Of a stretch of 64,000 bases of DNA, positions 24,132 to 61,010 are shown in pieces (position 1 is the stretch's first letter; every line of letters begins with the position of its first letter). Origin of the DNA: Dipteris shenzhenensis (taxonomy: Eukaryota); assembly GCA_047967505.1 (NCBI GenBank), contig CM106538.1, one strand, 5' to 3'. The notes under the pieces are model-generated. The model saw only the letters and a list, made by a program, of their open reading frames with translations. It did not search any database and was not told the DNA's origin. A program made the position numbers and the translations under genes.

Positions 24132-24162
<31 letters not shown>

Positions 24163-25730: not shown

Positions 25731-26533
25731 AGTTTCGCTCTCTTCAAATTTTAAAAAAAAATCTAGAAAAAGAATTAATCAAAAAAATTTGCAAGAACCT
25801 GGAAAAAGTTTGTAAGTTTGCTCTTTCTTGCTTTCTTGCTCTTCCTTCCTTGCTCTCTTAATCGTCCTTGCTTTCTTGCTTCAATGAATGAAATGAGGGG
25901 AGAATGAATGAAGAAGGAAGACTATATATAAGAAAAATTAGGTTTTCTTCCTCCTCTCCTATTGGCTTTCCATTCCTCCCCTCTCTCCTATTGGCTTTTC
26001 ATTTATCCCCTCTCCCATTGGCTCCCATTACTCCCCCTCTCCCATTGGACCCCCATCCCTCATCCCAATCTTCCATTAGCCCTCCCCCCATCCATCCATT
26101 TCTTCTTCCTCCCCATTGCCACCACTCCCATCCCACATTTCCACCACGTCCCATACTCCTCCCATTTCCCAAAATCCCATATTTCCCCATCTCACCCTCC
26201 TCTTTTTCATCCCCTATTAACTCCCCCACTCATTTCACTCCCTTATTATCCTACTCCCCTATTACTTTCCCCTCTCCCATTCCAGTCTTCCCTCCCCACT
26301 CTCACTTCCATTTCCCATTACTCACTTGCCATTTGAAAACTATTAATATATTATTATACTATTGTTTATACTTATTATCATACATCCTTATTACTTCCCT
26401 CTCCCATTCCACTCCTCCCTCCTCACTCCCACTTCCACTTCCCATTACTCACTTGCTATACACATTTGCAAACTATTAATATATTATTATATGATTTCTT
26501 ATACTATTTGCAAACTTACATGTGGGCAAAATC

Positions 26534-29900: not shown

Positions 29901-32340
29901 TGCAAAGAATATCCGATGGTGACAATACTTTGCACACCCTTCAACGTAGTTGAAACGGACTTGCGTGCAAAGTGGATCCCCCATCCAATAAGTACTAGTT
30001 TGAATAACACACCTAGGACCGTGTTTTTTCATGGTTGTGCATGACACTAAGGCAAAAACGGTATTTTATGCTTGATCGACAATGCAAAGCATATTCGATG
30101 GGAACAATACTTTTCACACACCTTCAACTAGGTGCAATAGACTTACATCCAAAGTGGCATGCCCATCCCATAAGTGCTTGATCGGATAACATACCTAGCA
30201 GCGTGTTTTTTTACAGATGTGCATGACACTAGAGCAAAAATAGTATTTAGTGCTTGCTTGACCATGCAAAGGATATCCGATTGGCACAACACTTTTCGTA
30301 CACCTCAACCTAGGTGGTATTGAAATGTTCTCAAAGAGGCACACCCATCCTATAAGTACTTGGTCAGATAACACACCTAAGGGCGTGTTTTTTAACGGAT
30401 GTGCATATCACTAGGGAAAGAATGGTGTATAATGCGTGATCGACCATGCAAGGCATATCTGATGGTGACAATACTTTGAACGCCCTTCAACATAGCTGAA
30501 ACGGACTTGCGTGCAAAGTGGAGCCCCCATCCGATAAGTACTAGTTTGAATAACACACCTAGGACCGTGTTTTTTCATGCTGGTGCATGACACTAAGGCA
30601 AAAACAGTGTTTTATGCTTGATCGATAATGCAAAGCATATCCGATGAGCACAATACATTGCACACACCTTCAACTAGGTGGAATTGACTTACATGAAAAG
30701 TGGCACACCCATCCCATAAGTGCTTGATTGGATAACATACCTAGCAGCGTGTTTTTTCACAGATGTGCATGACACTAGAGCAAAGATAGTATTTAATGCT
30801 CGATCGACCATGCAAAGGATATCCGATGGGCACAACACTTTTCTTACACGTCAACCTAGGTGGTATTGAAATGTTCTCAATGAGGCACACCCATCCGATA
30901 AGTACTTGGTCAGATAACACACCTAATGGCATGCTTTTTTGCGGATGTCCATATCACTAGGGAAAAAATGGTGTATAATGCGTGATCGACCATGCAAAGC
31001 ATATCCGATGGTGAAAATACTTTGCATGCACCTTAGTTGAAACGGACTTCCGTACAAAGTGGAGCCCCCATCCGATAAGTACTTATTTGAACAACACACC
31101 TATGGCCGTGTTTTTATATGGTTGTGCATGACATTAAGGCAAAAACGGTGTTTTATGCTTGATCGAGAATGCAAAGCATATCCGATGGGCACAATACTTT
31201 GCACACACCTTCAACTAGGTGGAATTGGCTTACATGCAAAGTGGCACGCCCATCGCATAAGTGCTTGATCAGATAACACACCTAGCAGCGTATTTTTTTA
31301 CGGATGTGCATGACACTAGAGCAAAAATAGTATTTAATGCTCGATCGACCATGCAAAGCATATTCGATGGGCACAATAGTTTTCGTACACCTCAACCTAG
31401 GTGGTATTGAAATGTTCTCAAAGAGGCACACCCATCCGATAAGTACTTGGTCAGATAACATAACTAAGGGCATGTTTTTTTCGGATGTGCATACCACTAG
31501 GGAAAAAACGGTGTATAATGCGTGATCGACCATGCAAAGCATATCCGATGCGCACAACGCTTTTCGTATGCATCAACCTAGGTGGTATTGAGATGTTCTC
31601 AATGAGGCATACCCATCCAATAAGTACTTGGTCAGATAACACACCTAATGCCGTGTTTTTTTGCGGATGTCCATATCACTAGGGAAAAAATGGTGTATAA
31701 TGTGTGATTGACCATGCAAAGAATATCCGATCGTGACAATACTTTGCACACACCTCAACGTAGTTGAAAAGGACTTGCGTGCAAAGTGGAGCCCCCATCC
31801 GATAAGTACTTATTTGAATAACACAGCTACGGCCCTGTTTTTATATGGTTGTGCATGACACAAAGGCAAAAACGGTGTTTTATGCTTGATCAACAATGCA
31901 AAGCATATCCGATGGGCACAATAATTTGCACACACATTCAACCAGGTGGAATTGACTTACATGCAAAGTGGCATTCCCATCGTGTAAGTACTTGATTGGA
32001 TAACACACCTAGCAGCGTTTTTTTTAATGGATGTGCATGACACTAAGGCAAAAATGGTATTTAATGCTCGATCGACCATGCAAACCATATCCGATGGCCA
32101 CAATACTTTTCCTACACCTTAATCTAGGTGGTATTAAAATGTTCTCAAAGAAGCACACCCATCCGATAAGTACTTGGTCAGATAACACACCTAAGGGCGT
32201 GTTTTTTTGCGGATGTGCATACCACTAGGGAAAAAACAGTGTATAATGCGTGATCGACCATGCAAATCATATCTGATGGTGACAATACTTTGCACTCATC
32301 TCAACCTAGTTGAAAGGGACTTGCGTGCAAATTGGAGCCC
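26990..32340. repeat. Satellite array, ~29-30 monomers of 182 bp with a 546-bp trimeric higher-order repeat
   Basis: ATAAGT(A/G)CT anchors spaced 182 bp apart (e.g. 28532, 28714, 28896, 29078, 29260); three monomer types recur in A-B-C order. Confidence 0.96.
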
Positions 32341-34256: not shown

Positions 34257-35799
34257 ACGATGGACCTTCGAGCTAGGTCCCCGAACCCCTCCTACAATTG
34301 CTATTACTTATAGAGCTCACCAAGCTCTTCCAAGATCCTCCCTGCTGAATAGTAGTGTCCCTACAGCCACCAAGAAGCTCTCCACACATGCAACTAGCGA
34401 CCTCCCCAACCAAGCTCACGTCCCCCTTTAGCTTAGATCCTCATGGCCTACATAGTAGGGATGCCTTCCCCATGAAACCAAGAAGCACATGCTACATGCT
34501 CTCTGTCATCCAAAGTACTCTTCAGGCCATGGCTTCTCCTTTACTCATAGAGCACACACATTGTCACAGTTCATCAGCCTCCTACAAAGTTGCCACCTCT
34601 GCAACAAAGTTCTTGTCTCCACTGTATCCTTTTCTCACGTACCTACTCACGTCTTCTCTTGCTCACATGGATCTCCCCTCTCCTATCGCCTTCGATCCTC
34701 CTTGCATACCCAAACTAGACTCCCCAATCAAAAGGCCTCTAGCCTTCTATAGTAGAGACACCCTCCAGAGAACTCCATTCACACCTCCTTCTCGCCTCTC
34801 AGCTTGCATGTCCATTCCAGCTAGTGTGTTGATGAAAACTTCCCGAATTCTCCTTCACACCCAGGCTTCACATACATCCCAGCTCCCCCAATCCAAAAGC
34901 TTACCCTCCTTCTTTACGCAGCCAACTTATATGCATGGCTTTTTTACAAGAGCTACACTCTTCTTGATTTCTAGGTTAGCCACCTCATGTTGGCCTTTTT
35001 ACCACTCTCCAAGTTTTCCAAAACATAGACCAAGACTTTAATGCCCAACCTTAGACTTTGTGCACACTACTGCATGTCACAAGCACTTAGTATCCAATTT
35101 CCCATCGACTATCCACATATGATGAATATAATCCTGACACAGTGGATTTACAAGGCATCCACAACGAAAAGAATGTTCATGCTTTCATGCATATATGGCT
35201 TGAGAAAAGCATTGAAAACATTTGTCATCCCACACAATCACACACTAGATACCATGCTCTGGAATGTTTAGTACACCCACTCTGCATTTTCATCATATCC
35301 CAAGGGTCCCTGCAAAATCATTTACAATCTCAAAAAAATATTTACATCAGTATAGTCTTTTGATGAGAGTTTCCATAAACTCAATTAGATTCAAGAAGGA
35401 CTAACTGTCGCATTCCTATCAATTTAATTAAACAAAACAGAACAAACATCGAGGTTATACCAATTGACCTTCTGGAACTCGAGGATCCCAACTCCATTGC
35501 TCCAGAAGACCTTAAGGAGCAACGAGTGAAACAAAAGCACATAAGAAAATAATCAATAATTTGATCAAAACCCAGACAAAGAAAGAGATACGGGCATAGA
35601 GCCACCAAACTAAATTCTGGAGATGTACAAAGTGACAAGGGACAAGACACAGACATAGAGCCAGATTTACAAATCAACAATAGTGGATATTACACAGTGC
35701 CAGAGAGCGCACGAGAGGAGGGTGAAGAACCAAACGAAGGAGCACCAAAAAGTCCATCGAGACTTCCACAACCACTGGTTCCACCAATGGCACACCCAA

Positions 35800-36460
35800 G
35801 TATGGCCAGTTTGAAATGTAAGTTTTCAAAATTCTGAGAAAAAGAGAACATCTGGACAGTCACGTGGCTTAATTCAAGAACTATGGTAGGAAAGCAGCTT
35901 CAACACTTCGTTTAGAGATTAAGAAAAGCTCCAACAGTTTGCTAGAATGCTTGCTGTAAAGCAATGAGATGGTTCACCCCATATGGAGTGGCAAATTTTA
36001 CAACATATGAGGAACTCAAGACGTCATTTCTAGAAATATTCAAAAAGGAGAAGACTCCAAGTAATGTTCAAAAAAAGTTGCAGGAATTGAAATAGAGAAA
36101 GCTAATAGTGGGGGGTCATGCTCAGCAATATCTCAATTTGAATAAAAGACTTGATCCTACCAAAAGACCAACACCAAAAACAATTTTACAAGGGAATGCA
36201 GCTGGAAATCAAAAGTGTCGTGCGACAGCATGGCTATTCCAGTGGGTCAAAATGGATTCAACACTCTCATAGAGGCAGCCAAATGCATGAAAAGAAAAAT
36301 CGGCACAACAAGGAAAACGAAGAAGACGTGTACAGATTCTGAAGAAGATTTTGATAATAGTCCAAACGACTCAAAAATTGAGTCCAATTCTGGATCCGCC
36401 CCAAGCAATGATGATTTCGACAATGATTTGGATGATGATGAAAAGAAAAATAAACAATTT
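35800..36460 (+). pseudogene. Retrotransposon gag-like fragment (Ty3/gypsy type)
   Basis: AMRWFTPYGVANFTTYEELKTSFLEIF...KKLQELK*RKLIV matches the Retrotrans_gag A..WF...TW.ELK..FL..F...L..LKQ pattern; stops and frameshifts. Confidence 0.65.
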
Positions 36461-36749
36461 GGATGAGGCGTGGAGAGGTGGAGCAGATAGAGGAGAAAGA
36501 GGCTATACTAAACTTCCTACCTAGAGTGTTGGGTGATATAGTTGTTCAATGGGAAATGGTAATATAAAGTAGTCAAAGCCCTTAATAGATGTAGCAAGGA
36601 CGAAGCTCGATAGGTGGCTCATAGAATGGAAAGAATCTCGCATTGCCATTCATAGAAAAAACCAAAAGGAGAAAGGGACAGTCAGTAGACTATCAAATGT
36701 CGCCATGCAATATTATACCCAGATTGCTAATGGTACACTTTCCACTGGT

Positions 36750-37007
36750 TGCATTGAAAATTCTGGAGGAATTGGGTGGGGGAGTGGAAGGAAAAGTGTA
36801 TCAATGGGTTAAGTTAGAAAGTGTGCCATGTTTCAAGACAATTCTATTTTATGCTGGGTAAGAAGTTGAGGCACGATACTGCACATGCATATAAATCGTT
36901 GAAGACAGAGCTGGCAATGACCATAATGCATAGGGCCATGTATCGAGCCATTGGTTACACGCACATTAGCAATCTTTGGTTAATCAGCCCATACTTTAAT
37001 AGAGGTA
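36750..37007 (+). pseudogene. Protein kinase N-lobe fragment, cut by a CACTA terminus
   Basis: LEELGGGVEGKVY (Gly loop), YAG/KKL (1-nt frameshift at ~36858), KTELAM..H..Y.AIGY, LWLISPYFNRG, then CACTA at 37008. Confidence 0.65.
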
Positions 37008-37800
37008 CACTAAAAGGCATAGGTCCTTTTCCGATGAAAATACTGACCTTTTTTACACATAAGTTTTTTTAACGAGTGTAAAGGTTGTTATTTACGTCGC
37101 GATAAACGTCGAAAAAGAACGGTCACTATATAGCGACACTAATAAACGTTGCTATATAGTGACACTGATAAACGTCACTATATAGTGACACTCGTAAACA
37201 TCGATATATAGTGACACTAGTAAACATCGCTATATAGCAACAACTAACAGAAGCTTTTAAAAAACATTAATGGGGCTAAACAAGGCCACATCAAGCCCTA
37301 TTTTGCCCCACTAATGTTTTTTATTTAGTAATTACAAAATAATGTTTTTTATTACAAAATTTTCCTTGTGGAAAGGGTGATACAAAATTGCTCAAATGAA
37401 TCGAGCGACAGAAGCATATACATGTCGAAGATATACAACGTTGTTTGTTACAAAATGACCCTTTCGAAAAGGGTGATACAAAATTGCTCAAACAAGCCGA
37501 TATACAAAAGCATATATATGGCGAAGTATATGCAAACTACTACTACTACTATGCTCATCTGAATCGTCGTCCTCCTCCTCATCCTCGTCTTGTTGACCTG
37601 CTCCCTAGCCCTCGTGAGCTGTGTCTGCTCCTTGGCCCTCGTGAGCTGTGCCTGATCCCTAGCCCTCGTCGAAGCCGTGTAAGCCTAATCCCTCATCATC
37701 ACCACTCACCTCCACTGATGGGATGTTTGAGCTTTGATTCTAAGAGTGAAACCATATTAATTTGCAATTAGATTTTTGAAATTAGATTGGAACTTAAAGA
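37008..37800 (-). mobile_element. Inverted right-terminal fragment of a diverged family-1 CACTA element
   Basis: CACTAAAAGGCATAGG at 37008, followed by CTATATAG subterminal repeats, the hairpin and the last exon; reverse-complementary to ~3550-4277. Confidence 0.85.
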
Positions 37801-37844
37801 ATAAAAAACACGATATGAGTGTCTTTATAATTAAATAAACTAAA

Positions 37845-40800
37845 ATCGCGTTTTCTAGCAAAAACTCCTACTGATGCAAAAACATCATGTCCAGAGAAAA
37901 TCAGGTGAATCTGCAAGATAGTTGTGTTGATCATTCAAAAGCTCTTCAGAAGATGAAGCAGATGACTATGAGCTGATGCAGTAGAATTAGATAGATGAAG
38001 AAGACAATTGGAAAGGTAGATCAAGACTGTGGTGTATTTAAGTACCTAATTCCTTTCTCTCCATGGCTTTTGCACAAGTTTAGGTAGGTGGGGATGATGA
38101 TGGGGAAAAAAGAAAGGCCTAAAGTATTGTCCAAATGAAGATGAGGAAGAAGATGAAGATTCAAAACTGTTGAATGGATGGGGAAAAGTGAAGGTAAGAG
38201 GAGATGGCAGAGATATCTATTCAAGTCACACTTGTCAGCCACACATGCCAAAACTGGTCTTCAAGGTACTATACTTAGAGTATCTAGTGATTGCATGCAC
38301 CCACTTTTAGACCAAGCTGCTAGACTTAATCATTCCCTTTGTCATCTCCATCTCTAGTTTCATCTTCCTCCCTATAGGGTTGTGACAGACAACCTCAACA
38401 GCTCTATTACCCTGAACAATACAGCTCCAAGTCCTTCCCCTAAACCCACTACAACTCTATCTCAACCCATCAAGCTGACACCCATCAAACTGTTATCCAC
38501 ACTGACCCACTACAACTCAAGATATATCAAGCTGACAACCATCAAGCTGTCACCCATCAAGCTCTATTCACATTGATACATACTAATAAGGTTAGTACCT
38601 TTTGCTAGAAAATGCAATATTCATGTTTCTTAAGGAAAACTGCTCCAAAACACATTTTTTATCAAATTTTTGCACACCTAGCATATTTTGCTAATAAACA
38701 TGATATAGGGTGTTTTAATGGAAAAGAGCCTCAAATCGCATTTCCTAGAAGAAAAAAGTTATTCTCTATGTGATATGTCATTGGCACCTAAAGAAAGGTG
38801 AGGTCTACACAATCACAGATCAAGGAAACAGTACTGCCCACAAATATAGCAGATTCCTAAGTGCTATATATGAGTACTTGGATTTGTTTTGTCCATCGCT
38901 GGCCCTGGTGACTTGTCTGTTGCTCTTGCATAGGTGCAGTAATGGGGGGGTGTTGGGGGGATGATGGGAGTAAGGGGGGGAGGGGGGGTGTTGAAGCGAT
39001 GATGAGAGTAGGGGGGGGGGGATGATGGCAGTGATGCAGATAAGGATGTGGTGTAGGGATGTAGGAAAGTGTAGATCAAAACTACTAGAGGGATGGAGAA
39101 AAGTGTAGATAAGTGGAAAGGGCACAGTTTTCAATGCATGACACATCTGTCTTGTAAGCCAAACGTGTGGAAAACGATCTTCGAGGTACCTATGCATTCA
39201 TTTCCTCATGATTGCTTGCATAGATTTTGAGACAAAATCGCCTCTAAGTAGAGTTACCCTTCATTTCATCCCTATCTTTAGTTTCAGTTGCCTCCAACCT
39301 CACTACCTCACCAGCTCCAGCTCCAACCCCACTACCTCACCACCTCCAGCTCCAACCTCACCACCTCCAGCTCCAACCTCACTACCTCACCACCTCCATC
39401 ACAGAGTCCCACTGCAGCTCCAACTCCACCACCCACTGCAGCTCTAGCCACAACCACCCTAGCTCCATCTCACACCTCTCCAGCTCTAGCTCTAGCTCCA
39501 GCTCTACACACAAGCCCACTGGGTAAGCAATCTATCACCTATCATTGGTTTATCCTATTGTTAAGGTGAAATGGCCATTCCATAGCTTTCTCTCAAAGAC
39601 ACTTTCTGAAATGTTTTTTTGAGCACATCTCATCTGTATTCTAGGGTTTACGTGCATGGTGGAGTATAACTGATTGATTAGACTGGGCTTAAGCAAAATT
39701 TGCTCAAAAACACAATTTAAGCTATTTGTTTTTCTCTTCCATATCGCATTTTCTAGCAAAAAGTCCTTCCTCTTGATGCAAAAACATCATGTTTAGAAAA
39801 GTTTAGGTAAATGCCTAATAGCTGTTGATGCAGTAGAATTAGATAGATCAAGACTGTGGCTTTTGCGCAAGTATAGGTAGGTGGGGATAATGATGGGAGA
39901 AAACACATGCCAAAATTGGTCTTCAAGGTACTATATTTAGAGTATCTAGTGATTTCATGCACCTGTTTTAAAACCAGGCTTTTTAGAGTATCATTCATTT
40001 TGTCCTCCCTACAGGCTTGTGCACACCTAGCATGTTTTGCTAATAAATGTGATATAGGGTGTTTTTATGGAAAAGAGCCTCAAATCACGTTTTCTAGAAA
40101 AAAATGTTATCCTTTATGGACCAAGTACTAGCACCTAAGAAAAGATGAGGTCTACACAACCACAAATCAAGAAAACACTACTGCAAACAAGAATAGCAGA
40201 TTCCTAAGTGGTAGAATAAGTACCTAAATTTTTTCTATCCATGACTGGCCCTGGTGACTTGTTTGTGGCTCTTGCACAAGTGCAGTAAGGGTGGGGGGGG
40301 GTGTTGGGGGAATGATGGGAGAAAGGCAGGGGGGGGAGGGGGGGGGCGGATGATGATGGCAGTAATGCAAATCAGAACTGCTAGAGGGATGGAGGAAATT
40401 GTAGATCAGAACTACTAGAGGGATGGAGAAAGTGTAGATAAGAGAAAAGGGCATAGTTTCCAATGCATGTCACATCTTTCTTGTCAGCCACACATTTGGA
40501 AAATGGTCTTCTAGGTTCCTGTGTATTTATTTCCTCATCATTGTTTGCATAGATTTTGAGACAAAACCCCCTCTAAGTAGAGCTACCCTTCATTTCATCC
40601 CTATCTCTAGTTTCAGTTGCCTCCAACCTCACCACCTCCAGCCCCAACCTCACTACCTCACTAGCTCTTGCTCCAGCCCCACTACCTCACCACCTCCATC
40701 ACAGAGTCCCACTGCAGCTCCAACTCCAACCTCCCTCACCAGCTCCACCACCCACTGCAACTACAGCCACAACCTCCCTAGGTCCATCTCACACCTCCCC

Positions 40801-41065
40801 AGCTCCAGCTCCAGTTGTACACACAAGCCCAGGTAAGCAATCTACCACAAGTCATAAGTTTTTCCTGTTAGTAAGGTGAAATGACCATTCCATAGCTTTT
40901 TCTCAAAGGCACTCTATGAGTTGTTTTTCTAAACACATCTCATCTACATTGTAGGGTTTAGGAGGATGGTAGAGTCCAAACTGATTGATTAGAGTAGGCT
41001 TTAGTACATTTGCTCAAAATTTGAGCTTGTTCTTTGTTTTTCTCCTCCATATCGTGTTTTCTAGA
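37845..41065. repeat. Two diverged direct repeat units (~1.9 and ~1.3 kb) upstream of the H3-like gene (duplicated at ~46675-49895)
   Basis: TGATGCAAAAACATCATG at ~37873 and ~39774; CACACCTAGCAT.TTTTGCTAATAAA at ~38673 and ~40022; CTCCAACCTCAC-rich blocks ending in GTAAGCAATCT at ~39523 and ~40833. Confidence 0.8.
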
Positions 41066-41238
41066 AAACCTTAAGCATGCCGGGTGTTCCTGGGGTATGT
41101 CCAAAAACATTTGCTCAAAAACAAGATTTTAGCCTTTTCTCTATCTTTTTACACCATATCGCGTTTTCAAGCAAACTCTTAGGTTGCTGATTTCCTTGTG
41201 ATGTTTGGGTTTTTTTCCAGGAGAAGAGCAGAAATACT

Positions 41239-42673
41239 ATGGCAAGAACCAAAGCAATAGCCATAAGGAAAAGAAAAGAACCTGACATTATAGGGGCTAT
41301 CATGGCTCCATCCAAGTCTAAATCCTCAAAGAAGGGGAAGCCTGTGCACATGCTAGCAAGGAACAAGAAGAAAAGAGTGAACCAAAGCAGATCTATCCTC
41401 ATGGAGATCAGGAAGGCTCAGAAAGCCATAGGATATGCAATACCCATGGCACCATTCCAGATGCTAGTCAGGGCAATATGCATGAACTGGCATGTGGACT
41501 TTAGACGGCAAAGGACTGCACTACTTGCTCTATAAGAAGCTACTGAAGAGTGGCTCATAGAGTTTTTCATGGACACCATGATGGTAGCAGCACATGCACA
41601 CAGGGTCACCATCATGAAGAAAGACATCCAAAAATTTGTCAGGGTCAAATATAGATATGACAAGATCCTTAATGTAGAGGATTGGGATGATCTCAAAATG
41701 AGAGATATCTTGTTGATACCTCCAGCCAGGAAACCTAAAGATGATGGATTCAAGGAACGTCATACCAGAGGCAAGTTCCCTTCATTCCCATTGCAGTTGT
41801 CTCAAAAGACTAATGGATGCACTCGACCTCCGTGATCCAAAGTTAAAGATGTTAGATTCAGCACCCAATGTCATTGCAAGTACAGTAATCATTGTCACTT
41901 ATCTTTATCTCCCTCTTATTTTTGCACTCTTCATAGTCCAATATACATCTTAGCTTTCTATTTTGATAAAACAAACACCACAACAGGAGGATCCTTTCTC
42001 CTGTGGATGGAGGACTCTCATCAGTGCCAAATATATGATGGACACATACTTTTCAGAGAAACAGCCTGAATTTGTGAGTGCTTTCATTGCATACTATTTG
42101 AGAAGTTCTAAATTTAATGCATTGATACAGAAATATTGAAAACATTCTTTGTTTTTATTGTAGATGAAAGAGGATAGTTTTGGCTCTGAATATGTACATA
42201 GCTTTAGAGAAAAGATAATTCTGAGGCTGCTAGAGCACTCTTCCCCTTGTCCAACACCAGACCAACCAGTCTATACAAGAGAGGGCTCAAAAGATGCTAA
42301 GGATCACCGAGTTAAACAAGAGGCTCAGAATGTCCCAGGCACTAGCAATCTAGAAGACATTCTAGAAGGTGTCGGTGTTGATGAGCTACTTGATCTTTTC
42401 CAAAAGCCCGAGCCTATGCACAAGGAGGCAAGGACGTCAAAGTAGCACAACCGAGCCCATGGACGAGGAGGCAGGGACACCAAAGCAACAAGAGGAGTCG
42501 ATGCAGGAGGAGTGGATGCAGGAGGAGGCAGTACTGACAGAGGATGTGCAGCAGCAGGATGTAGAGCAGCTAGATCCATAGCAGGATCCACAACAGGATG
42601 TAGAGCAGTTGGATCCATAGCAAGATCCACAATACGATGTACAGCAGCAGGATCCACAGCACCAGCAACATGA
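41239..42673 (+). pseudogene. Divergent histone H3-like gene continuing into a degenerate Ulp1/C48 peptidase-like domain and a Q/D/E-rich tail
   Basis: MARTK...ILMEIRKAQK...IPMAPFQMLVRAI...DFRRQRTALLAL*EATEEWLIEFFMDTMMVAAHAHRVTIMKKDIQKFVRV aligns without gaps to the H3 fold; the stop at 41533 is TAA at the conserved Q. Downstream: FIPI...*W / ALDLRDPKLKMLDS, exon TPQQEDPFSCGWR (41975-42073), exon MKEDSF..VHSFREKIILRLLE (from 42164). Confidence 0.85.
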
Positions 42674-42962
42674 GCAGCATGTGGAAGATTCTTAGGAGTC
42701 TCCATTGCAAAAAAGTCAAGAGAGAGATTCTGAGCAATAATAGAAAAATACATGATACTTGTAATCATTTTGTATTAATACATCAAATGTAAACTTTTTT
42801 TTTTGGTTGCAAGTAATACCTGAGTGAATAGCTTTGTATTATCTGAATTGTTCTATTTACAATGTCCTTGCATTGATTTTTGCTTACGCTCCTTTGAAGT
42901 ATCTGCAAAAATAATTTTTTAGCAATATGTAAATGTATTATGCAAATGTAAAAAGAATCAAA

Positions 42963-44283
42963 TTAGGAGAAACACAAGGTGGTCAAATTAGGAGAAACAT
43001 AGGGTGGAAACCAACTTACTTTCCTATTGTTCAAAATGAATGAAAATTCTTTATGGATATTGTTTTGAGTCTCCATAATAATGTCATTGTGTAACTGATA
43101 GAGAGTGCAGCATTGTCCCAGTGAGATGGATGTTAGAAGGATGTCATTCTCAATAACATTGTTTTCAAGTATTGGACCTAATGACCTCTCATCTTGGTCC
43201 ATTGCCACAAGTTTTGTGCCTATCATCCAACTGCATTTATAGTAAAAAGAGAAAATAAAATGTTGTGAGGCAATCATGTAGTTAATGTTGATGGAGTTAT
43301 GAGCAACCTCACAATACACATTTTTGGCCACCATTCTATCCCAACCATTATCCATAAATTTTGGATTTGGAATTGGAACTTCATCATATCCTTTTTCTTT
43401 GAAAGTCAACATTGTCTTACAAACTTTAACTGGATAATCCTAAAAAAGTTCTACAAAAACTCTAAGTGGCATGAAAACGTTGATTTTAACTATCCTGGTA
43501 GCAATATTTGGTTTCAGGGAATGTTATACTTCCGAAAATAGTTTGGCTCTATAGGATTCTGTGATGCTGCCATCGGGGACTGGCCAATCAACTGTATTCC
43601 ATGCCGGGAGATCTTGCTTTTTTAATAAACCGTGTGAGTGAGCATTGTCCATCAATTGATAAAAGTGATCATAAAAAAATATACCCGATTCAGCCAAGGT
43701 TTTTGATTTTTAACGTCTGTACTATAGCTCCCCAATAGCACCATGTAAAGCATCAAAGAATCCGAGTATGCACTCTAGTGGTTACCACTCTTCGTATGAT
43801 GAGGGGTATATATCTGAATGAAAACAAAGACATTGTCTGTCATTGAAAGAAACAGATATTTCATTTCAAGTATTTCATTTCACAAATACACTTATAATTG
43901 GGTCTATAATGTAAAAGATAAGCAAGATGATCTCGTAATACAAGTTCTTGGTGCATGTAGACATGTATCCGAACCTCTCTAATGCATCTTGTGCCTTCCT
44001 TTTTTACTCTGAAATCTTTCACTCTTCCCTTTCAAGAAGCCAAAAAAGTGTTCGTTGATTGCTGCTTTCTTCGCTTGTTGGGTTGCATTAGAACTCAAAC
44101 TCCTTTCGCCACTGCTATCCTTTTCTAGCTACCGGCCACATTCACAGTATTGGAAACTTCTACACATGAGATTAGTGAGGTAGGTCTTCGCGGCAAATAG
44201 ATACTTTGAACATCTAGATCTTCGCCAGGTATAGGCCGGACAGACCGCTTCCTAGTGGCACGACCAAAGTTTTTGGTTGCCAT
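42963..44283 (-). pseudogene. Degraded gene of unknown function, convergent with the H3-like gene
   Basis: Protein-like frames (...ECILGFFDALHGAIGEL...DLPAWNTVDWPVPDG...VKINVFMPLRVFVELF... then ORF 42963-43412) interrupted by stops and frameshifts. Confidence 0.45.
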
Positions 44284-44649
44284 CTGAAATCCTCACTCTA
44301 ATACCTTCAAAGTCAAAGGAACACACACTAAAATAGTAAGTCCATTGCTCCAGAAGACTTAAGGAGCAACGAGTGAAACAAAAGCACATAAGAAAATAAT
44401 CAATAATTTGATCAAAACCCAGACAAAGAAAGAGATACGGGCATAGAGCCACCAAACTAAATTCTGGAGATGTACAAAGTGACAAGGGACAAGACACAGA
44501 CATAGAGCCAGATTTACAAATCAACAATAGTGGATATTACACAGTGCCAAATAGCGCACGAGAGGAGGGTGAAGAACCAAACGAAGGAGCACCAAAAAGT
44601 CCATCGAGACTTCCACAACCACTGGTTCCACCAATGGCACACCCAAATG

Positions 44650-45310
44650 TGGCCAGTTTGAAATGTAAGTTTTCAAAATTCTGAGAAAAAGAGAACATCT
44701 GGACAGTCACGTGGCTTAATTCAAGAACTATGGTAGGAAAGCAGCTTCAACACTTCGTTTAGAGATTAAGAAAAGCTCCAACAGTTTGCTAGAATGCTTG
44801 CTGTAAAGCAATGAGATGGTTCACCCCATATGGAGTGGCAAATTTTACAACATATGAGGAACTCAAGACGTCATTTCTGGAAATATTCAAAAAGGAGAAG
44901 ACTCCAAGTAATGTTCAAAAAAAGTTGCGGGAATTGAAATAGAGAAAGCTAATAGTGGGGGGTCATGCTCAGCAATATCTCAATTTGAATAAAAGACTTG
45001 ATCCTACCAAAAGACCAACACCAAAAACAATTTTACAAGGGAATGCAGCTGGAAATCAAAAGTGTCGTGCGACAACATGGCTATTCCAGTGGGTCAAAAT
45101 GGATTCAACACTCTCATAGAGGCAGCCAAATGCATCAAAAGAAAAATCGGCACAACAAGGAAAACGAAGAAGACGTGTATAGATTCTGAAGAAGATTTTG
45201 ATAATAGTCCAAACGACTCAAAAATTGAGTCCAATTCTGGATCCGCCACAAGCAATGATGATTTCGACAATGATTTTGATGATGATGAAAAGAAAAATAA
45301 ACACTTTGGA
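44650..45310 (+). pseudogene. Retrotransposon gag-like fragment (duplicate)
   Basis: Duplicate of 35800-36460. Confidence 0.65.
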
Positions 45311-45595
45311 TGAGGCGTGGAGAGGTGGAGCAGATAGAGGAGAAAGAGGCTATACTAAACTTCCTACCTAGAGTGTGGGTGATATAGTTGTTCAATGGGA
45401 AATGGTAATATAAAGTAGTCAGAGCCCTTAATAGATGTAGCAAGGACGAAGCTCGATAGGTGGCTCATAGAATGGAAAGAATCTCGCATTGCCATTCATA
45501 GAAAAAACCAAAAGGAGAAAGTGACAGTCGGTAGACTATCGAATGTCGCCATGAAATATTATACCCAGATTGCTAACAGTACACTTTCCACTGGT

Positions 45596-45853
45596 TGCAT
45601 TGAAAATTCTCGAGGAATTGGGTGGGGGAGTGGAAGGAAAAGTGTATCAACGGGTTAAGTTAGAAAGTGTGCCATGTTTCAAGACAATTCTATTTTATGC
45701 TGGGTAAGAAGTTGAGGCACGATACTGCACATGCACATAAATCGTTGAAGACAGAGCTGGCAATGACCATAATGCATAGGGCCATGTATCGAGCCATTGG
45801 TTACACGCACATTAGCAATCTTTGGTTAATCAGCCCATACTTTAATAGAGGTA
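45596..45853 (+). pseudogene. Protein kinase N-lobe fragment (duplicate)
   Basis: Duplicate of 36750-37007. Confidence 0.65.
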
Positions 45854-46630
45854 CACTAAAAGGCATAGGTCCTTTTCCGATGAAAATACTGACCTTTTTT
45901 ACACATAAGTTTTTTTAACGAGTGTAAAGGTTGTTATTTACATCGCGATAAACGTCGAAAAAGAACAGTCACTATATAGCGACACTAATAAACGTTGCTA
46001 TATAGTGACATTGATAAACGTCACTATATAGTGACACTCGTAAACATCGATATATAGTGACACTAGTAAACATCGCTATATAGCAACAACTAACAGAAGC
46101 TTTTAAAAAACATTAATGGGGCTAAACAAGGCCACATCAAGCCCTCTTTTGCCCCACTAATGTTTTTTATTTAGTAATTACAAAATAATGTTTTTTATTA
46201 CAACATTTCCCTTGTGGAAAGGGTGATACAAAATTGCTCAAATGAATCGCGCGACAGAAGCATATACATGTCGAAGATATACAACGTTGTTTGTTACAAA
46301 ATGACCCTTTCGAAAAGGGTGATACAAAATTGCTCAAACAAGCCGATATACAAAAGCATATATATGGCGAAGTATATGCAAACTACTACTACTACTATGC
46401 TCATCTGAATCGTCGTCCTCCTCCTCATCCTCATCTTGTTGACCTGCTCCCTGGCCCTCCTGAGCTGTGTCTGCTCCTTGGCCCTCGTGAGCTGTGCCCC
46501 TAGCCCTCGTCGAAGCCGTGTAAGCCTAATCCCTCATCATCACCACTCACCTCCACTGATGGGATGTTTGAGCTTTGATTCTAAGAGTGAAACCATATTA
46601 ATTTGCAATTAGATTGGAACTTAAAGAATA
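45854..46630 (-). mobile_element. Inverted CACTA right-terminal fragment (duplicate)
   Basis: CACTAAAAGGCATAGG at 45854; duplicate of 37008-37800. Confidence 0.85.
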
Positions 46631-49600
46631 AAAAACACGATATGAGTGTCTTTATAATTAAATAAACTAAAATCGCGTTTTCTAGCAAAAACTCCTATTG
46701 ATGCAAAAACATCATGTCCAGAGAAAATCAGGTGAACTGCAAGATAGTTGTGTTGATCATTCAAAAGCTCTTCACAAGATGAAGCAGATGACTATGACCT
46801 GATGCAGTAGAATTAGATAGATGAAGAAGACAATTGGAAAGGTAGATCAAGACTGTGGTGTATTTAAGTACCTGATTCCTTTCTCTCCATGGCTTTTGCA
46901 CAAGTGTAGGTAGGTGGGGATGATGATGGGGAAAAAAGAAAGGCCTAAAGTATTGTCCAAATGAAGATGAGGAAGAAGATGAAGATTCAAAACTGTTGAA
47001 TGGATGGGGAAAAGTGAAGGTAAGAGGAGATGGCAGAGATATCTATTCAAGTCACACTTGTTAGCCACACATGCCAAAACTGGTCTTCAAGGTACTATAC
47101 TTAGAGTATCTAGTGATTGCATGCACCCATTTTTAGACCAAGCTGCTAGACTTAATCATTCCCTTTGTCATCTCCATCTCTAGTTTCATCTTCCTCCCTA
47201 TAGGGTTGTGACAGACAACCTCAACAGCTCTATTACCCTGAACCAATACAGCTCCAAGTCCTTCCCCTAAACCCACTACAACTCTATCTCAACCCATCAA
47301 GTTGACACCCATTAAACTGTTATCCACACTGACCCACTACAACTCAAGATATATCAAGCTGACAACCATCAAGCTGTCACCCATCAAGCTCTACTCACAT
47401 TGATACATACTAATAAGGTTAGTACCTTTTGCTAGAAAATGCAATATTCATGTTTCTTAAGGAAAACTGCTCCAAATCACATTTTTTATCAAATTTTTGC
47501 ACACCTAGCATATTTTGCTAATAAACATGATATAGGGTGTTTTAATGGAAAAGAGCCTCAAATCACGTTTCCTAGAAGAAAAAAGTTATTCTCTATGTGA
47601 TATGTCATTGGCACCTAAAGAAAGGTGAGGTCTACACAATCACAGATCAAGGAAACAGTACTGCCCACAAATATAGCAGATTCCTAAGTGCTATATATAA
47701 GTACTTGGATTTGTTTTGTCCATCGCTGGCCCTGGTGACTTGTCTATTGCTCTTGCATAGGTGCAGTAAGGGGGCGGTGTTGGGGGGATGATGGGAGTAA
47801 GGGGGGGAGGGGGGGTGTTGAAGCGATGATGAGAGTAGGGGGGGGGGTAATGATGGTGGTGATGCAGATAAGGATGTGGTGTAGGGATGTAGGAAAGTGT
47901 AGATCAAAACTACTAGAGGGATGGAGAAAAGTGTAGATAAGTGGAAAGGGCACAGTTTTCAATGCATGACACATCTGTCTTCTAAGCCAAACGTGTGGAA
48001 AACGATCTTCGAGGTACCTATGCATTCATTTCCTCATGATTGCTTGCATAGATTTTGAGACAAAATCGCCTCTAAGTAGAGTTACCCTTCATTTCATCCC
48101 TATCTTTAGTTTCAGTTGCCTCCAACCTCACTACCTCACCAGCTCCAGCTCCAACCCCACTACCTCACCACCTCCAGCTCCAACCTCACCACCTCCAGCT
48201 CCAACCTCACTACCTCACCACCTCCATCACAGAGTCCCACTGCAGCTCCAACTCCACCACCCACTGCAGCTCTAGCCACAACCACCCTAGCTCCATCTCA
48301 CACCTCTCCAGCTCTAGCTCTAGCTCTAGCTCTACACACAAGCCCACTGGGTAAGCAATCTATCACCTATCATTGGTTTATCCTATTGTTAAGGTGAAAT
48401 GGCCATTCCATAGCTTTCTCTCAAAGACACTTTCTGAAATGTTTTTTTGAGCACATCTCATTTGTATTCTAGGGTTTACGTGCATGGTGGAGTATAACTG
48501 ATTGATTAGACTGGGCTTAAGCAAAATTTGCTCAAAAACACAATTTAAGCTATTTGTTTTTCTCTTCCATATCGCATTTTCTAGCAAAAAGTCCTTCCTC
48601 TTGATGCAAAAACATCATGTTTAGAAAAGTTTAGGTAAATGCCTAATAGCTGTTGATGCAGTAGAATTAGATAGATCAAGACTGTGGCTTTTGCGCAAGT
48701 ATAGGTAGGTGGGGATAATGATGCGAGAAAACACATGCCAAAATTGGTCTTCAAGGTACTATATTTAGAGTATCTAGTGATTTCATGCACCTGTTTTAAA
48801 ACCAGGCTTTTTAGAGTATCATTCATTTTGTCCTCCCTACAGGCTTGTGCACACCTAGCATGTTTTGCTAATAAATGTGATATAGGGTGTTTTTATGGAA
48901 AAGAGCCTCAAATCACGTTTTCTAGAAAAAAATGTTATCCTTTATGGACCAAGTACTAGCACCTAAGAAAAGATGAGGTCTACACAACCACAAATCAAGA
49001 AAACACTACTGCAAACAAATATAGCAGATTCCTAAGTGGTAGAATAAGTACCTAAATTTTTTCTATCCATGACTGGCCCTGGTGACTTGTTTGTGGCTCT
49101 TGCACAAGTGCAGTAAGGGTGGGGGGGGTGTTGGGGGAATGATGGGAGTAAGGCAGGGGGGGGAGGGGGGGGGGGGCGGATGATGATGGCAGTGATGCAA
49201 ATCAGAACTGCTAGAGGGATGGAGGAAATTGTAGATCAGAACTACTAGAGGGATGGAGAAAGTGTAGATAAGAGGAAAGGGCATAGTTTCCAATGCATGT
49301 CACATCTTTCTTGTCAGCCACACATTTGGAAAACGGTCTTCTAGGTTCCTGTGTATTTATTTCCTCATCATTGTTTGCATAGATTTTGAGACAAAACCCC
49401 CTCTAAGTAGAGCTACCCTTCATTTCATCCCTATTTCTAGTTTCAGTTGCCTCCAACCTCACCACCTCCAGCCCCAACCTCACTACCTCACTAGCTCTTG
49501 CTCCAGCCCCACTACCTCACCACCTCCATCACAGAGTCCCACTGCAGCTCCAACTCCAACCTCCCTCACCAGCTCCACCACCCACTGCAACTACAGCCAC

Positions 49601-50068
49601 AACCTCCCTAGGTCCATCTCACACCTCCCCAGCTCTAGCTCTAGTTGTACACAAAAGCCCAGGTAAGCAATCTGTCACAAGTCATTAGTTTTTCCTGTTA
49701 GTAAGGTGAAATGACCATTCCATAGCTTTTTCTCAAAGGCACTCTATGAGTTGTTTTTCTAAACACATCTCATCTACATTGTAGGGTTTAGGAGGATGGT
49801 AGAGTCCAAACTGATTGATTAGAGTAGGCTTTAGTACATTTGCTCAAAATTTGAGCTTGTTCTTTGTTTTTCTCCTCCATATCGTGTTTTCTAGAAAACC
49901 TTAAGCATGCCGGGTGTTCCTGGGGTATGTCCAAAAACATTTGCTCAAAAACAAGATTTTAGCCTTTTCTCTATCTTTTTACACCATATCGCGTTTTCAA
50001 GCAAACTCTTAGGTTGCTGATTTCCTTGTGATGTTTGGGTTTTTTTCCAGGAGAAGAGCAGAAATACT

Positions 50069-51507
50069 ATGGCAAGAACCAAAGCAATAGCCATAAGGAA
50101 AAGAAAAAGACCTGACATTATAGGGGCTGTCATGGCTCCATCCAAGTCTAAATCCTCAAAGAAGGGGAAGCATGTGCACATGCTAGCAAGGAACAAGAAG
50201 AAAAGAGTGAACCAAAGCAGATCTATCCTGATGGAGATCAGGAAGGCTCAGAAAGACGTAGGATATGCAATACCCATGGCACCATTCCAGATGCTAGTCA
50301 GGGCAATATGCATGAACTGGCATGTGGACTTTAGACGGCAAAGGACTGCACTACTTGCTCTATAAGAAGCTACTGAAGAGTGGCTCATAGAGTTTTTCAT
50401 GGACACCATGATGGTAGCAGCACATGCACACAGGGTCACCATCATGAAGAAAGACATCCAAAAATTTGTCAGGGTCAAATATAGATATGACAAGATCCTT
50501 AATGGAGAGGATTGGGATGATCTCAAAATGAGAGATATATATCTTGTTGATACCTCCAGCCAGGAAAGCTAAAGATGATGGATTCAAGGAACGTCATACC
50601 AGAGGCAAGTTCCCTTCATTCCCATTGCAGTTGTCTCAAAAGACTAATGGATGCACTCGACCTCCGTGATCCAAAGTTAAAGATGTTAGATTCAGCACCC
50701 AATGTCATTGCAAGTACAGTAATCATTGTCACTTATCTTTATCTCCCTTTTATTTTTGCACTCTTCATAGTCCAATATACATCTTAGCTTTCTATTTTGA
50801 TAAAACAAATACCACAACAGGAGGATCCTTTCTCCTGTGGATGGAGGACTCTCATCAGTGCCAAATATATGATGGACACATACTTTTCAGAGAAACAGCC
50901 TGAATTTGTGAGTGCTTTCATTGCATACTATTTGAGAAGTTCTAAATGTAATGCATTGATACAAAAATATTGAAAACATTCTTTGTTTTTATTGTAGATG
51001 AAAGAGGATAGTTTTGGCTCTGAATATGTACATAGCTTTAGAGAAAAGATAATTTTGAGGCTGCTAGAGCACTCTTCCCCTTGTCCAACACCAGACCAAC
51101 CAGTCCATACAAGAGAGGGCTCAAAAGGTGCTAAGGATCACCGAGTTAAACAAGAGGCTCAGAATGTCCCAGGCACTAGCAATCTAGAAGACATTCTAGA
51201 AGGTGTCGGTGTTGATGAGCTACTTGATCTTTTCCAAAAGCCCGAGCCTATGCACAAGGAGGCAAGGACGTCAAAGTAGCACAACCGAGCCCATGGACGA
51301 GGAGGCAGGGACACCAAAGCAACAAGAGGAGTCGATGCAGGAGCAGTGGATGCAGGAGGAGGTAGTACTGACAGAGGATGTGCAGCAGCAGGATGTAGAG
51401 CAGCTAGATCCATAGCAGGATCCACAACAGGATGTAGAGCAGTTGGATCCATAGCAAGATCCACAATACAATGTACAGCAGCAGGATCCACAGCACCAGC
51501 AACATGA
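50069..51507 (+). pseudogene. Divergent histone H3-like/Ulp1-like gene (duplicate)
   Basis: Same sequence with the same TAA (50363) plus an extra 4-nt ATAT insertion at ~50538. Confidence 0.85.
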
Positions 51508-51796
51508 GCAGCATGTGGAAGATTCTTAGGAGTCTCCATTGCAAAAAAGTCAAGAGAGAGATTCTGAGCAATAATAGAAAAATACATGATACTTGTAATC
51601 ATTTTGTATTAATACATCAAATGTAAACTTTTTTTTTTGATTGCAAGTAATACCTGAGTAAATAGCTTTGTATTATCTGAATTGTTCTATTTACAATGTC
51701 CTTGCATTGATTTTTGCTTACGCTCCTTTGAAGTATCTGCAAAAATAATTTTTTAGCAATATGTAAATGTATTATGCAAATGTAAAGAGAATCAAA

Positions 51797-53111
51797 TTAG
51801 GAGAAACACAGGGTGGTCAAATTAGGAGAAACATAGGGTGGAAACCAACTTACTTTCCTATTGTTCAAAATGAATGAAAATTCTTTATGGATATTGTTTT
51901 GAGTCTCCATAATAATGTCATTGCGTAACTGATAGAGAGTGCAGCATTGTCCCAGTGAGATGGATGTTAGAAGGATGTCATTCTCAATAACATTGTTTTC
52001 AAGTATTGGACCTAATGACCTCTCATCTTGGTCCATTGCCACAAGTTTTGTGCCTATCATCCAACTGCATTTATAGTAAAAAGAGAAAATAAAATGTTGT
52101 GAGGCAATCATGTAGTTAATGTTGATGGAGTTATGAGCAACCTCACAATACACATTTTTGGCCACCATTCTATCCCAACCATTATCCAAAAATTTTGGAA
52201 TTGGAACTTCATCATATCCTTTTTCTTTGAAAGTCAACATTGTCTTACAAACTTTAACTGGATAATCCTAAAAAAGTTCTACAAAAACTCTAAGTGGCAT
52301 GAAAACGTTGATTTTAACTATCCTGGTAGCAATATTTGGTTTCAGGGAATGTTATACTTTCGAAAATAGTTTGGCTCTATAGGATTCTGTGATGCTGCCA
52401 TCGGGGACTGGCCAATCAACTGTATTCCATGCCGGGAGATCTTGCTTTTTTAATAAACCGTGTGAGTGAGCATTGTCCATCAATTGATAAAAGTGATCAT
52501 AAAAAAATATACCCGATTCAGCCAAGGTTTTTGATTTTTAACGTCTGTACTATAGCTCCCCAATAGCACCATGTAAAGCATCAAAGAATCCGAGTATGCA
52601 CTCCAGTGGTTACCACTCTTCGTATGATGAGGGGTATATATCTGAATGAAAACAAAGACATTGTCTGTCATTGAAAGAAACAGATATTTCATTTCAAGTA
52701 TTTCATTTCACAAATACATTTAGAATTGGGTCTATAATGTAAAAGATAAGCAAGATGATCTCGTAATACAAGTTCTTGGTGCATGTAGACATGTATCCGA
52801 ACCTCTCTGACGCATCTTGTGCCTTCCTTTTTTACTCTGAAATCTTTCACTCTTCCTTTTCAAGAAGCCAAAAAAGTGTTAGTTGATTGCTGCTTTCTTC
52901 GCTTGTTGGGTTGCATTAGAACTCAAACTCCTTTCACCACTGCTATCCTTTTCTAGCTACCGGCCACATTCACAGTATTGGAAACTTCTACACATGAGAT
53001 TAGTGAGGTAGGTCTTCATGGCAAAGAGATACTTTGTACATCCAGATCTTCGCCAGGTATAGGCCGGACAGACCGCTTCCTAGTGGCACGACCAAAGTTT
53101 TTGGTTGCCAT
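51797..53111 (-). pseudogene. Degraded gene of unknown function (duplicate)
   Basis: Duplicate of 42963-44283. Confidence 0.45.
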
Positions 53112-54485
53112 CTGAAATCCTCACTCTAATACCTTCAAAGTCAAAGGAACACACACTAAAATAGTAAGACATTAACAAAAATGAACGAAACTGAGAACAA
53201 GTGAATAAACGGTGAAAGGAGCTTATTGTCTTGAAAGTTTAAGAGCATCACAACAATAGTGATGCAACGAGGAATGCTTGTTGAAGAGAAAATGGAATGG
53301 CTCGTCGTGGTGAAAGTAGAGGAATGGCATCGGAGAACAAGAGAAAGTGGATGGTTGTTTTGGGTCACCACGCGGGAAGGTTTCCAAATGGAGCTCTGTT
53401 TCGATTTTGGGTCCACATCTCTTGATACGACAGGCGAACCGTAAAAGAATCAAAAACAAATCTTCTCATTAATGCCACACGCTTGTAACAACATAAAGTA
53501 CTATTTTCTTTTTCATATTTTTGCCCTTTTTTGTAAAATTTCTACGTTGTGTTGGGCTTCTCCTCATTGGTTGAGAGACATTTTTTTGAAACCCTAAAAG
53601 GCCCCAAAATGATCTCCCTTTTTTCCTAATGACATGAAGTGTGGAGATGGGAGGAGGTTTTCTTTTCCAACACCTCAACAATAGTCATAGTCACTCATAG
53701 ACAATACTCATGATATTCCTAGGGTGGTATCCCCCTCTAAATATTTGCCAATTAGCCAAGTAGTAAATTAGGACAACGAACAAGGCCTAGCATGACACAT
53801 TGCATAAGATATTAATCATGGGCCAATTGAAATGTCATGCTCATAGACCTTTGATGTCTACGTCTAATCTTCTTTTAGAGCTCATATCTAGAGCTCAATG
53901 GCTGTGGTTGAAGGCATATGAACCTTGAACGTCATTTGTGACATGTTTCAAATGTACATAGCTTTGCGATTGTTCGCATTAAAGCATGAGCATGAACATG
54001 TACATAACATTTAATAAATTTTCTACATGCTATAATTATGAAATAGTAGTTCAACTAGCCTTTAGGACTAATTTTAGGCACTTTAGTATATAAACGGACA
54101 AATCATATATTCTGACTAGATTTTGACCTGTTAAAACCGATTATGTGTACACTACTACACACGGATCCTATTGCGATGTTTACGTACCGACGTTTAGCAC
54201 CCGCTTAGCGTTAATCATCGGTATGAAAAGCGAGTTTCGTAAATCGTCGCTATATAGCAACTGTTGCTAAAAGTCGCTATATAGCGACACTGATACAAAA
54301 TATTATAGCGATGTTTTTACAGAGAGGTTTTTTTTTTTTATAGGCCTTAAAAGTTAGTTTTTTCCAATGACAAATTTTTTTAAATTTTCCTACATGTTTG
54401 AGCTCATAGAGAAATAAAAAATGAGAGCATGTACATCAAGCCTTTGAAGCTCATATATTCATGTCCAAGTTTGAGATGAGAAAAG

Positions 54486-60800: not shown

Positions 60801-61010
60801 CCCTCATCTCTTTCCCCTTCTCTATTTCCCCCTTCTCTCATTCTCTATTTCCTCATTCTCATTCTTTTCTTTCCTTTCCATCTTCTTTCCCTCTTTCCTT
60901 TCCCTCTTCTTTCCTTTCCCTCTTCTTTCTTCTTGCCTATGCCTATGCCTATGAGAATGCTTATGTTTGTTTTTTTGTTTTTTGTTTTCGTGTTTGTGTC
61001 TATGTTAGAC

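Follow-up and report, generated by a model that had tools for sequence, protein, structure and literature searches.

A decayed histone H3-like gene in a CACTA transposon of the fern Dipteris shenzhenensis, probably derived from an H3-protease chimera

Introduction

In a 64,000-nucleotide stretch of the genome of the fern Dipteris shenzhenensis (GenBank assembly GCA_047967505.1, contig CM106538.1; hereafter the window, meaning this whole stretch), a reading frame at 41239-41835 on the plus strand resembles histone H3. The original prediction, made from the letters alone, saw in it a mixture of residues typical of the centromeric variant CENH3 and of canonical H3, together with a rewritten tail, and proposed either a captured CENH3-derived gene or an H3 variant unable to carry the usual silencing marks. 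This raises the question of what kind of gene the frame comes from and whether it is still a gene at all. According to our analysis, to which we give a probability of roughly 0.75, what survives here is the N-terminal part, in decay, of a chimeric gene carried by a transposon, and the intact members of its family would encode a chromatin-tethered protease serving the transposon. We call this chimeric gene family H3-ULP.

An H3-type histone fold at 41239-41835

Translation of 41239-41850 gives a tail starting with MARTK, followed by IPMAPFQMLVRAI (41440-41478), DFRRQR, ALLAL*EA and VTIMKKD (41605-41625). The tail occupies 41239-41373 and the histone fold about 41374-41643. A conserved C-terminal extension (41644-41775) then adds about 45 in-frame residues, VKYRYDKILNVEDWDDLKMRDILLIPPARKPK...HTRGK, after which out-of-family sequence runs until a TGA. 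The frame, which we refer to as copy A, was delimited by translation, Pfam Histone, a hidden Markov model (HMM) of the extension and tblastn with family proteins; in the tblastn search these proteins matched only two sites in the window, copy A and the copy B described below. Pfam Histone (PF00125) matched residues 28-136 of copy A with 82.7 bits (E 3.2e-23, cutoff 26.4), and H3 chains of the PDB aligned with the fold without gaps at E about 1e-18. Copy A is a true H3-type histone fold, the match lying far beyond chance.

Of the motifs that had drawn attention to the locus, IPxAPF..LVR.I and VTIMKKD are present in the translation. ALLAL(Q)EA is present too, but the codon taken for Gln is in fact a TAA stop (41533-41535, H3 position 93). 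Alignment bore out Q68 and T107, and also the canonical length of loop 1, which at 9 residues equals that of 39 of 40 canonical rows. The feature had been drawn to end at 41660, while the conserved frame actually extends to about 41775. The original prediction was therefore right about the histone fold; it overlooked the fusion partner, the pseudogene state and the second copy, to which we return below.

A polypyrimidine tract that closes with CAG is present 5-18 nt upstream of the ATG in the window (41180-41238) and in two related loci described below, L001 (about 200-261) and L003 (about 750-808). This shared tract and CAG suggest that the H3-ULP gene has a conserved intron in its 5' untranslated region.

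A diverged and conserved family of relatives

A word-indexed protein search yielded 26 family relatives among 67 candidates at E<=1e-3, and 2 among 241 longer proteins. When the search was made exhaustively with P0027, a protein of 511 residues from Adiantum capillus-veneris, we obtained 7877 matches at E<=1e-3, mostly ordinary H3, and 29 matches at E<=1e-30. A profile of the extension that follows helix alpha-3 matched 68 of 184 rows, including the window (E 1.3e-13). The eight named family proteins all come from two Adiantum ferns, seven of them from Adiantum nelumboides. Scanning a metagenome collection with alignment A5 gave 19 loci, seven of which are family members (L001-L007), and the scan with alignment A4 gave no relative among its 273 pattern matches. 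In all seven of these loci, fold, extension and protease exons follow one another in order on one strand, and an intact first exon ends at GT.

We then compared residues column by column in 43 non-redundant family rows and 40 canonical H3 rows. Position 84 is Trp in 43/43 family rows and Phe in 40/40 canonical rows. The family further has Pro at position 63 (35/43), Asp at 98 (41/43), Glu at 102 (36/43), Ala at 112 (42/43) and His at 115 (32/43), where canonical H3 has Arg, Ala, Gly, Ile and Lys, respectively. Other H3 residues are kept, namely R69 (43/43), R72 (41/43), D106 (43/43), R116 (42/43), T118 (40/43) and D123 (39/43). The CGG (Arg) that had been reported at the F84 position of the window was found at 41506-41508; given the invariant Trp of the family it is a decayed TGG, as that prediction had suspected.

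The window fold is 63% identical to the family member P0001 and at most 47% identical to any of the canonical rows. For the family, the median identity of the fold is 44% to canonical H3 and 48% within the family. In a tree of 138 rows and 93 columns, 55 family rows were split from the 83 others with a Shimodaira-Hasegawa-like approximate likelihood ratio (SH-aLRT) support of 97. The possibility raised along with the original prediction, that a consensus of many copies would collapse toward canonical H3, was tried on these data: the family stays apart, with its 44% median identity and near-fixed residues of its own. Since the relatives form a conserved family that does not collapse toward canonical H3, we assign the feature, on sequence grounds, to a diverged and conserved family and not to ordinary decayed H3.

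Tails were counted in the 35 rows bearing an N terminus, a set that was not de-duplicated and that includes both window copies and six near-identical cluster members. The ARTK start is kept in 32/35 tails, many of which read MARTKQTARK. A context of the T-A-R-K/R type at positions 6-9, right after K4, is found in 25/35 and is never followed by Ser, and an ARKS context, the K27 type included, occurs in 0/35. A GKP.H motif present in 14/35 tails may, in our reading, align with K36-K37-P38-H39 of H3. The family thus conserves the K4 context, often has K9 without the following Ser, and has no K27-type site. The window tail, MARTKAIAIRKRK, is a further decayed form of the family tail, and in P0009, the nearest relative with a tail, position 9 is already Arg. 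The reported loss of the ARKS contexts of K9 and K27 is accordingly seen both in the window and throughout the family tails, but the loss of K9 is in part local to this copy.

An Ulp1/SENP-like protease behind the histone fold

In the longer relatives, the H3 fold is followed by the conserved extension of about 60 residues, a coiled coil and an Ulp1/SENP-like domain. This domain starts with LSDLIINF, compared to LNDEVINF in SENP2, and contains HWSL and QEDGHTCGW. P0035 (25.6 bits) and P0063 (22.8 bits) score above the Pfam Peptidase_C48 cutoff of 20.7, and P0030 (17.0 bits) and P0027 (15.8 bits) below it. Conservation extends to the catalytic His (in HWSL), the Gln and the Cys (in CGW), which line up with their counterparts in SENP2 and SENP8.

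An AlphaFold model of P0035, computed from a 54-row family alignment (predicted local distance difference test score, pLDDT, 77.6), comprises the helices of H3, a further helix (176-222) and, at 227-403, an alpha/beta domain. With Foldseek, this last domain was matched to NEDP1/SENP8, SENP1, SENP2, SENP5, SENP7 and Ulp1 at E 1.4e-8 to 1e-6, with probability 1.00 and target template modelling (TM) scores of 0.58-0.71; the N-terminal part matched H3 chains at E about 1e-4. A second model, of P0003 from the 13-row alignment A4, reached a pLDDT of 62.9 with the extension below 50, and we draw no structural reading of the extension from it. In the ESM Atlas, P0035 reached Peptidase_C48 clusters at a score of only 0.76, which we take as a lead and not as evidence. 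In one further family protein, P0171 of Adiantum nelumboides (817 aa), the H3-ULP part continues into an aspartic protease of the gag type (PF13975, 28.6 bits, cutoff 28.2), probably a retrotransposon insertion merged into the gene model.

The window retains a trace of the same protease. An exon remnant with the catalytic Gln...Cys-Gly-Trp motif lies on the plus strand 3' of each window copy, at 41972-42073 for copy A (tblastn with P0027 residues 364-396, 39% identity, E 0.001) and at 50806-50904 for copy B (same query residues, E 4e-4). This Cys exon encodes QTPQQEDPFSCGWRTLISAKYMMDTYF, a 34-residue remnant that has no Pfam match. The distance from the IPP motif to the Cys exon is 256 nt in the window, compared to 931-985 nt in three intact loci, and the ULP HMM detected no other protease piece (His or LND exon) in 41700-44400. 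From this shortened distance and the absence of both exons we conclude that about 700 nt of the window gene are gone. What is left lacks the coiled coil, the LND exon and the His exon, and the reading frame of copy A is lost after HTRGK.

Two dead copies in a tandem duplication

Self-BLAST of the window showed an 8.85-kb unit in two head-to-tail copies, 35490-44340 and 44338-53168, which are 98.3% identical. The second unit carries copy B of the H3-like frame (50069-50684, plus strand), in which, besides the same TAA stop, an insertion of 4 bp causes a frameshift after KMRDI. Copies A and B differ at 8/462 nt, with 6 non-synonymous and 1 synonymous codon differences, a ratio that indicates drift without constraint between them. 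Among the 41 open reading frames (ORFs) of the duplicated unit, we found no Pfam family beyond two sub-threshold matches attributable to chance.

Position 93, occupied by the TAA in both copies, is Gln in 36/43 family rows and 40/40 canonical rows. Copy A carries further changes at positions conserved in the family, with Arg at 84, Met at 69 and Met at 49. R69 and R49-type residues of H3 have roles in contacts with DNA and H4. The open frame and the conserved H3 contact residues are thus kept by the family as a whole but not by the window copy. Because of the shared stop, the substitutions at invariant residues, the loss of about 700 nt of the protease part and the frameshift of copy B, both window copies are dead pseudogenes.

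The CACTA transposon around the gene

Copy B lies inside a CACTA (En/Spm-type) DNA transposon of 17,199 bp (45854-63052), which we recognized by its CACTA ends, a GTA target site duplication (TSD) and transposase sequences. The terminal sequence CACTAAAAGGCATAGG... begins at 45854 (+) and, in duplicate, at 37008 (+), where the duplicated left end heads copy A. Its inverted counterpart CACTACAAGGCATAGG... ends at 63052 (-), and that of another copy at 4277. The end sequence has 4 matches in the window, compared to 0 expected in 100 shuffles; the two ends of the element match at 20/23 terminal bases and share inverted subterminal homology over about 373 nt (81%). GTA stands directly outside both ends as a 3-bp target duplication, an agreement with a chance of 1 in 64. 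The tandem duplication spans 1.5 kb of flank and the left 7.3 kb of this element.

The transposase pieces lie on the minus strand at 55609-57693, with Transposase_21 at 57277-57693 (E 2.6e-35) and at 56434-57144, and DUF4218 at 55609-56085 (E 1.6e-20). Their coding region is broken up by stops or introns, and no Pfam family was found in the ORFs flanking it. The gene is thus placed inside an element bounded by terminal inverted repeats (TIRs) and a TSD; it may be an integral part of this CACTA family or have come in by capture or by nested insertion.

Two further fragments of the same CACTA family are present in the window. The fragment 1143-4277 is a right-hand end, 88% identical to 59867-63052 and with the perfect terminal sequence at 4277. 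The fragment 4999-10945 is a transposase part with Transposase_21 and DUF4218, 96% identical to 54143-58418. Neither spans the H3-ULP gene part. Directly upstream of the H3-like gene, and inside the transposon, a 1.1-kb sub-repeat occurs twice per unit at about 80% identity (38668-39761 and 40017-41068; 47495-48589 and 48845-49898), and may be a subterminal repeat or a promoter region. We looked at the CACTACAA sites at 32812, 38447, 38508, 47274 and 47335 as possible ends of the transposon and discarded them, as they have no match to the real end beyond the 8-mer.

Gene of the transposon or gene of the host

Several observations weigh against reading H3-ULP as a transposon gene for a working protease. 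The transposon context was observed at this one locus only, so the family may not be generally transposon-borne; transposase, CACTA ends and the other ORFs of the window were not found in the seven related loci, whose contigs of 1.1-4.8 kb are too short for this to count as evidence. Gene and transposase lie on opposite strands, which departs from the ORF1-ORF2 order of angiosperm CACTA elements given in the part of PMC8978399 used here, and a nested insertion of another gene-carrying element may be involved. Where the Ulp1 triad has Asp, a conserved NS motif with Asn stands in all four loci with a His exon (4/4) and in P0029, P0063 and P0035. Given this replacement, protease activity of the intact members is plausible but not assured. 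The extension and linker are modelled at low confidence. Lastly, expression, pairing with H4, nucleosome incorporation and an effect on silencing are predicted roles.

If H3-ULP were instead a family of host genes, coding for a fern-specific H3 variant with a protease attached and a role in the cell, the window copy would be a passenger pseudogene in a CACTA element. The lack of transposon features on the short contigs of L001-L007 agrees with this, as do the gene's own introns and the acceptor-like site that stands a few nucleotides upstream of the ATG, both in the window and in L001 and L003, the two loci with the start pattern. The strong conservation of residues across very divergent members fits any selected protein, whether of a host or of a transposon. 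We nevertheless consider a host family unlikely. The gene sits within TIR- and TSD-bounded ends, and one assembly alone holds at least seven deeply divergent H3-ULP paralogues. The seven named members of Adiantum nelumboides include truncated ones and the model fused to a gag-type aspartic protease. Moreover, Peptidase_C48 is a recurrent accessory domain of transposons in the portions of PMC8978399 and PMC12973397 that we drew on.

Origin of the histone module

A further alternative concerns only where the histone module came from, and is compatible with a transposon-borne H3-ULP gene: the module could derive from a host CENH3 rather than from H3.1/H3.3. Hallmarks of CENH3 are a Trp at the F84 position and a lengthened loop 1, and plant CENH3 proteins typically have Trp84, Pro63 (the 'IP' motif) and Asp98. 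In our alignment, W84, P63 and D98 occur in 0/40, 1/40 and 0/40 canonical rows and in 11/43, 19/43 and 7/43 other divergent H3 variants. The stem of the family joins the tree among long-branch divergent variants, outside the canonical cluster, with weak supports. When the family and the 11 W84 variants were forced together, the approximately unbiased test did not reject the grouping (p-AU 0.65), and the tree was 14.3 log-likelihood units above the quick free tree.

This grouping was, however, defined after the alignment had been seen, and long-branch attraction between the family and the W84 variants is likely. The W84 variants are not verified CENH3s either: no entry in a set of 10 divergent variants whose names we checked, with W84 in 8 of the 10, is so named. 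Loop 1 has the canonical length in 45/55 family rows, and this length and the MARTKQTARK start, with ARTK kept in nearly all tails, point to ordinary H3 as the source. In the PDB, canonical H3 chains matched the window fold best, and none of the 60 best chains carried the name CENP-A alone; E102, A112 and H115 are specific to the family. A CENH3 origin stays a candidate to which we give a low probability.

We also noted a trap for retrieval by name in this part of the data. A profile search with alignment A3 was dominated by tandem double-H3 models: among the entries P0186-P0300, which are about 275-345 residues long, 112/115 join two canonical H3 genes in a single model, and many of these carry the source name 'histone H3-like centromeric protein CSE4/CENH3'.

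Finally, an ordinary decayed pseudogene of canonical H3, with odd residues due to random neutral changes, would account for the stop and the further damage in the window copy, but this reading is almost certainly wrong and already refuted by the family data, since dozens of intact and mutually divergent relatives share the odd residues and the extension, the window fold is much closer to P0001 than to any canonical row, and a protease exon remnant lies 3' of it.

Other features of the window

A satellite array of 29.4 copies of a 182-bp unit occupies 26995-32335, and 4.7 kb separate it from the left end of the CACTA element. Identity to the reference unit is about 91-95% for every third unit and about 75% for its neighbours, which indicates a higher-order repeat of 546 bp.

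On the minus strand, about 15500-22424 is a large multi-exon gene-like region in which no Pfam family was found over about 1100 residues. It is followed by three tandem copies of an Ulp1-like domain, the same domain as in the H3 family, each with LND, His and Cys exons. The ORF 20097-21188 has a DGQH motif and reached DUF3723 and DGQHR-domain clusters of the ESM Atlas at 0.92, as a lead only. The region may be another kind of mobile element. Nearby, two arms of a CT-rich, low-complexity inverted repeat (22354-22585 and 24126-24357; 232 nt, 91%) are 1540 nt apart, and a low-complexity block rich in proline codons, open in several frames, occupies 25160-25750.

Discussion

Taken together, we propose that the H3-like frames of the window are what remains of an H3-ULP gene of the transposon. 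The intact relatives code for a single protein made up of an H3 tail in which the first nine or ten residues are those of H3 and a K27-type context is absent, an H3-type histone fold with Trp at position 84, the conserved extension of about 60 residues after helix alpha-3, a coiled coil, and a cysteine-protease domain of the Ulp1/SENP/NEDP1 type. In the window the gene is carried by the 17.2-kb CACTA transposon, and the 8.85-kb tandem duplication then added a copy of it. In intact members, the fold would pair with H4, as histone folds do, and place the protein in or on nucleosomes. By analogy with C48 proteases, an enzyme acting on SUMO, NEDD8 or a similar modifier would thereby be tethered to chromatin.

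The benefit to the transposon would probably be that silencing dependent on such a modifier is counteracted. Protection of this kind is the most likely benefit because C48 domains recur in plant CACTA and Mutator-like elements and because Ulp1 has been linked to anti-silencing in VANDAL elements. According to the part of a review available to us (PMC13317346), Ulp1-carrying VANDAL elements are linked to anti-silencing and to loss of methylation at their own kin. In the parts of the other sources considered, angiosperm CACTA elements are known to carry Peptidase_C48 as an accessory domain (PMC8978399), and the domain is found in 77/775 CACTA clusters among active TIR transposons (PMC12973397 supplement). 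An additional or alternative role as a decoy for readers of the H3 N-terminus is speculation.

A bolder idea, which we regard as doubtful, is that ferns hold an old and diversified set of transposon-encoded H3 variants joined to a SENP/Ulp protease. A K27-less nucleosome subunit that strips SUMO-like modifiers from its surroundings would then amount to a built-in anti-silencing nucleosome.

The window locus itself holds a dead copy only. Should intact members of the family become part of nucleosomes, this would be one of few cases in which a mobile element provides a chromatin subunit of its own. If true, it would also open a direct way to study how DNA transposons withstand silencing in fern genomes, which are very large and rich in repeats. 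For histone biology, the family is a natural experiment on which H3 residues are required (R69, R72, R116, T118, D106 and H113) and which can change (F84W, G102E and I112A) once the tail marks have been discarded.

Compared to canonical H3.1/H3.3, the family shares a gapless fold, the ARTK start, conserved R69, R72, R83, R116, T118 and D123, and the GKP.H motif in part of its tails. It departs from them by its low median identity, the absence of ARKS, the near-fixed F84W, R63P, A98D, G102E, I112A and K115H, and a protein that continues past alpha-3. The resemblance to CENH3/CENP-A lies in Trp84, Pro63 and Asp98, which recall plant CENH3 states, and in a divergent tail. The family differs from CENH3/CENP-A in its loop 1 of canonical length, MARTKQTARK tail, multiple copies, long extension, protease and location in a transposon.

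The presence of H3 coding sequence within a DNA transposon, in many copies, has a parallel in the hAT elements of Dothideomycetes (PMC6710886, seen here in part). In Pseudocercospora fijiensis the transduplicated H3 copies were all disabled through repeat-induced point mutation (RIP), and the copies of Pyrenophora tritici-repentis show little RIP. The part of that paper considered here mentions no diverged protein family and no fusion partner, whereas the fern family is diverged, conserved and fused to a protease.

Angiosperm CACTA ORF2 and the KIU/Kaonashi genes of VANDAL elements are similar in having an Ulp1/SENP-type domain within a TIR transposon, beside Transposase_21/DUF4218, and an anti-silencing role has been suggested for them (parts of PMC8978399, PMC13317346 and PMC12973397). 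In these excerpts their C48 genes are described without a histone module, while here the protease stands behind an H3 fold; the present gene further differs in being antisense to the transposase, in its fern host and in the Asn that replaces the triad Asp. In the PMC12973397 supplement, a Histone domain is recorded once, in 1/1846 MULE (Mutator-like element) transposases, and in 0 of 775 CACTA clusters, and the word 'histone' has 0 occurrences in the main texts of PMC8978399, PMC13317346 and PMC12973397. A search of the full-text literature, with subscription-only papers and Repbase reports outside it, found no description of a histone-protease fusion or of a transposon-borne H3 in ferns. The capture of H3 by fungal hAT elements (PMC6710886) and the presence of C48 in CACTA elements (PMC8978399) are thus already known, each from the part of the source considered here; what appears new against the literature searched is a conserved fusion of an H3 fold with a protease.

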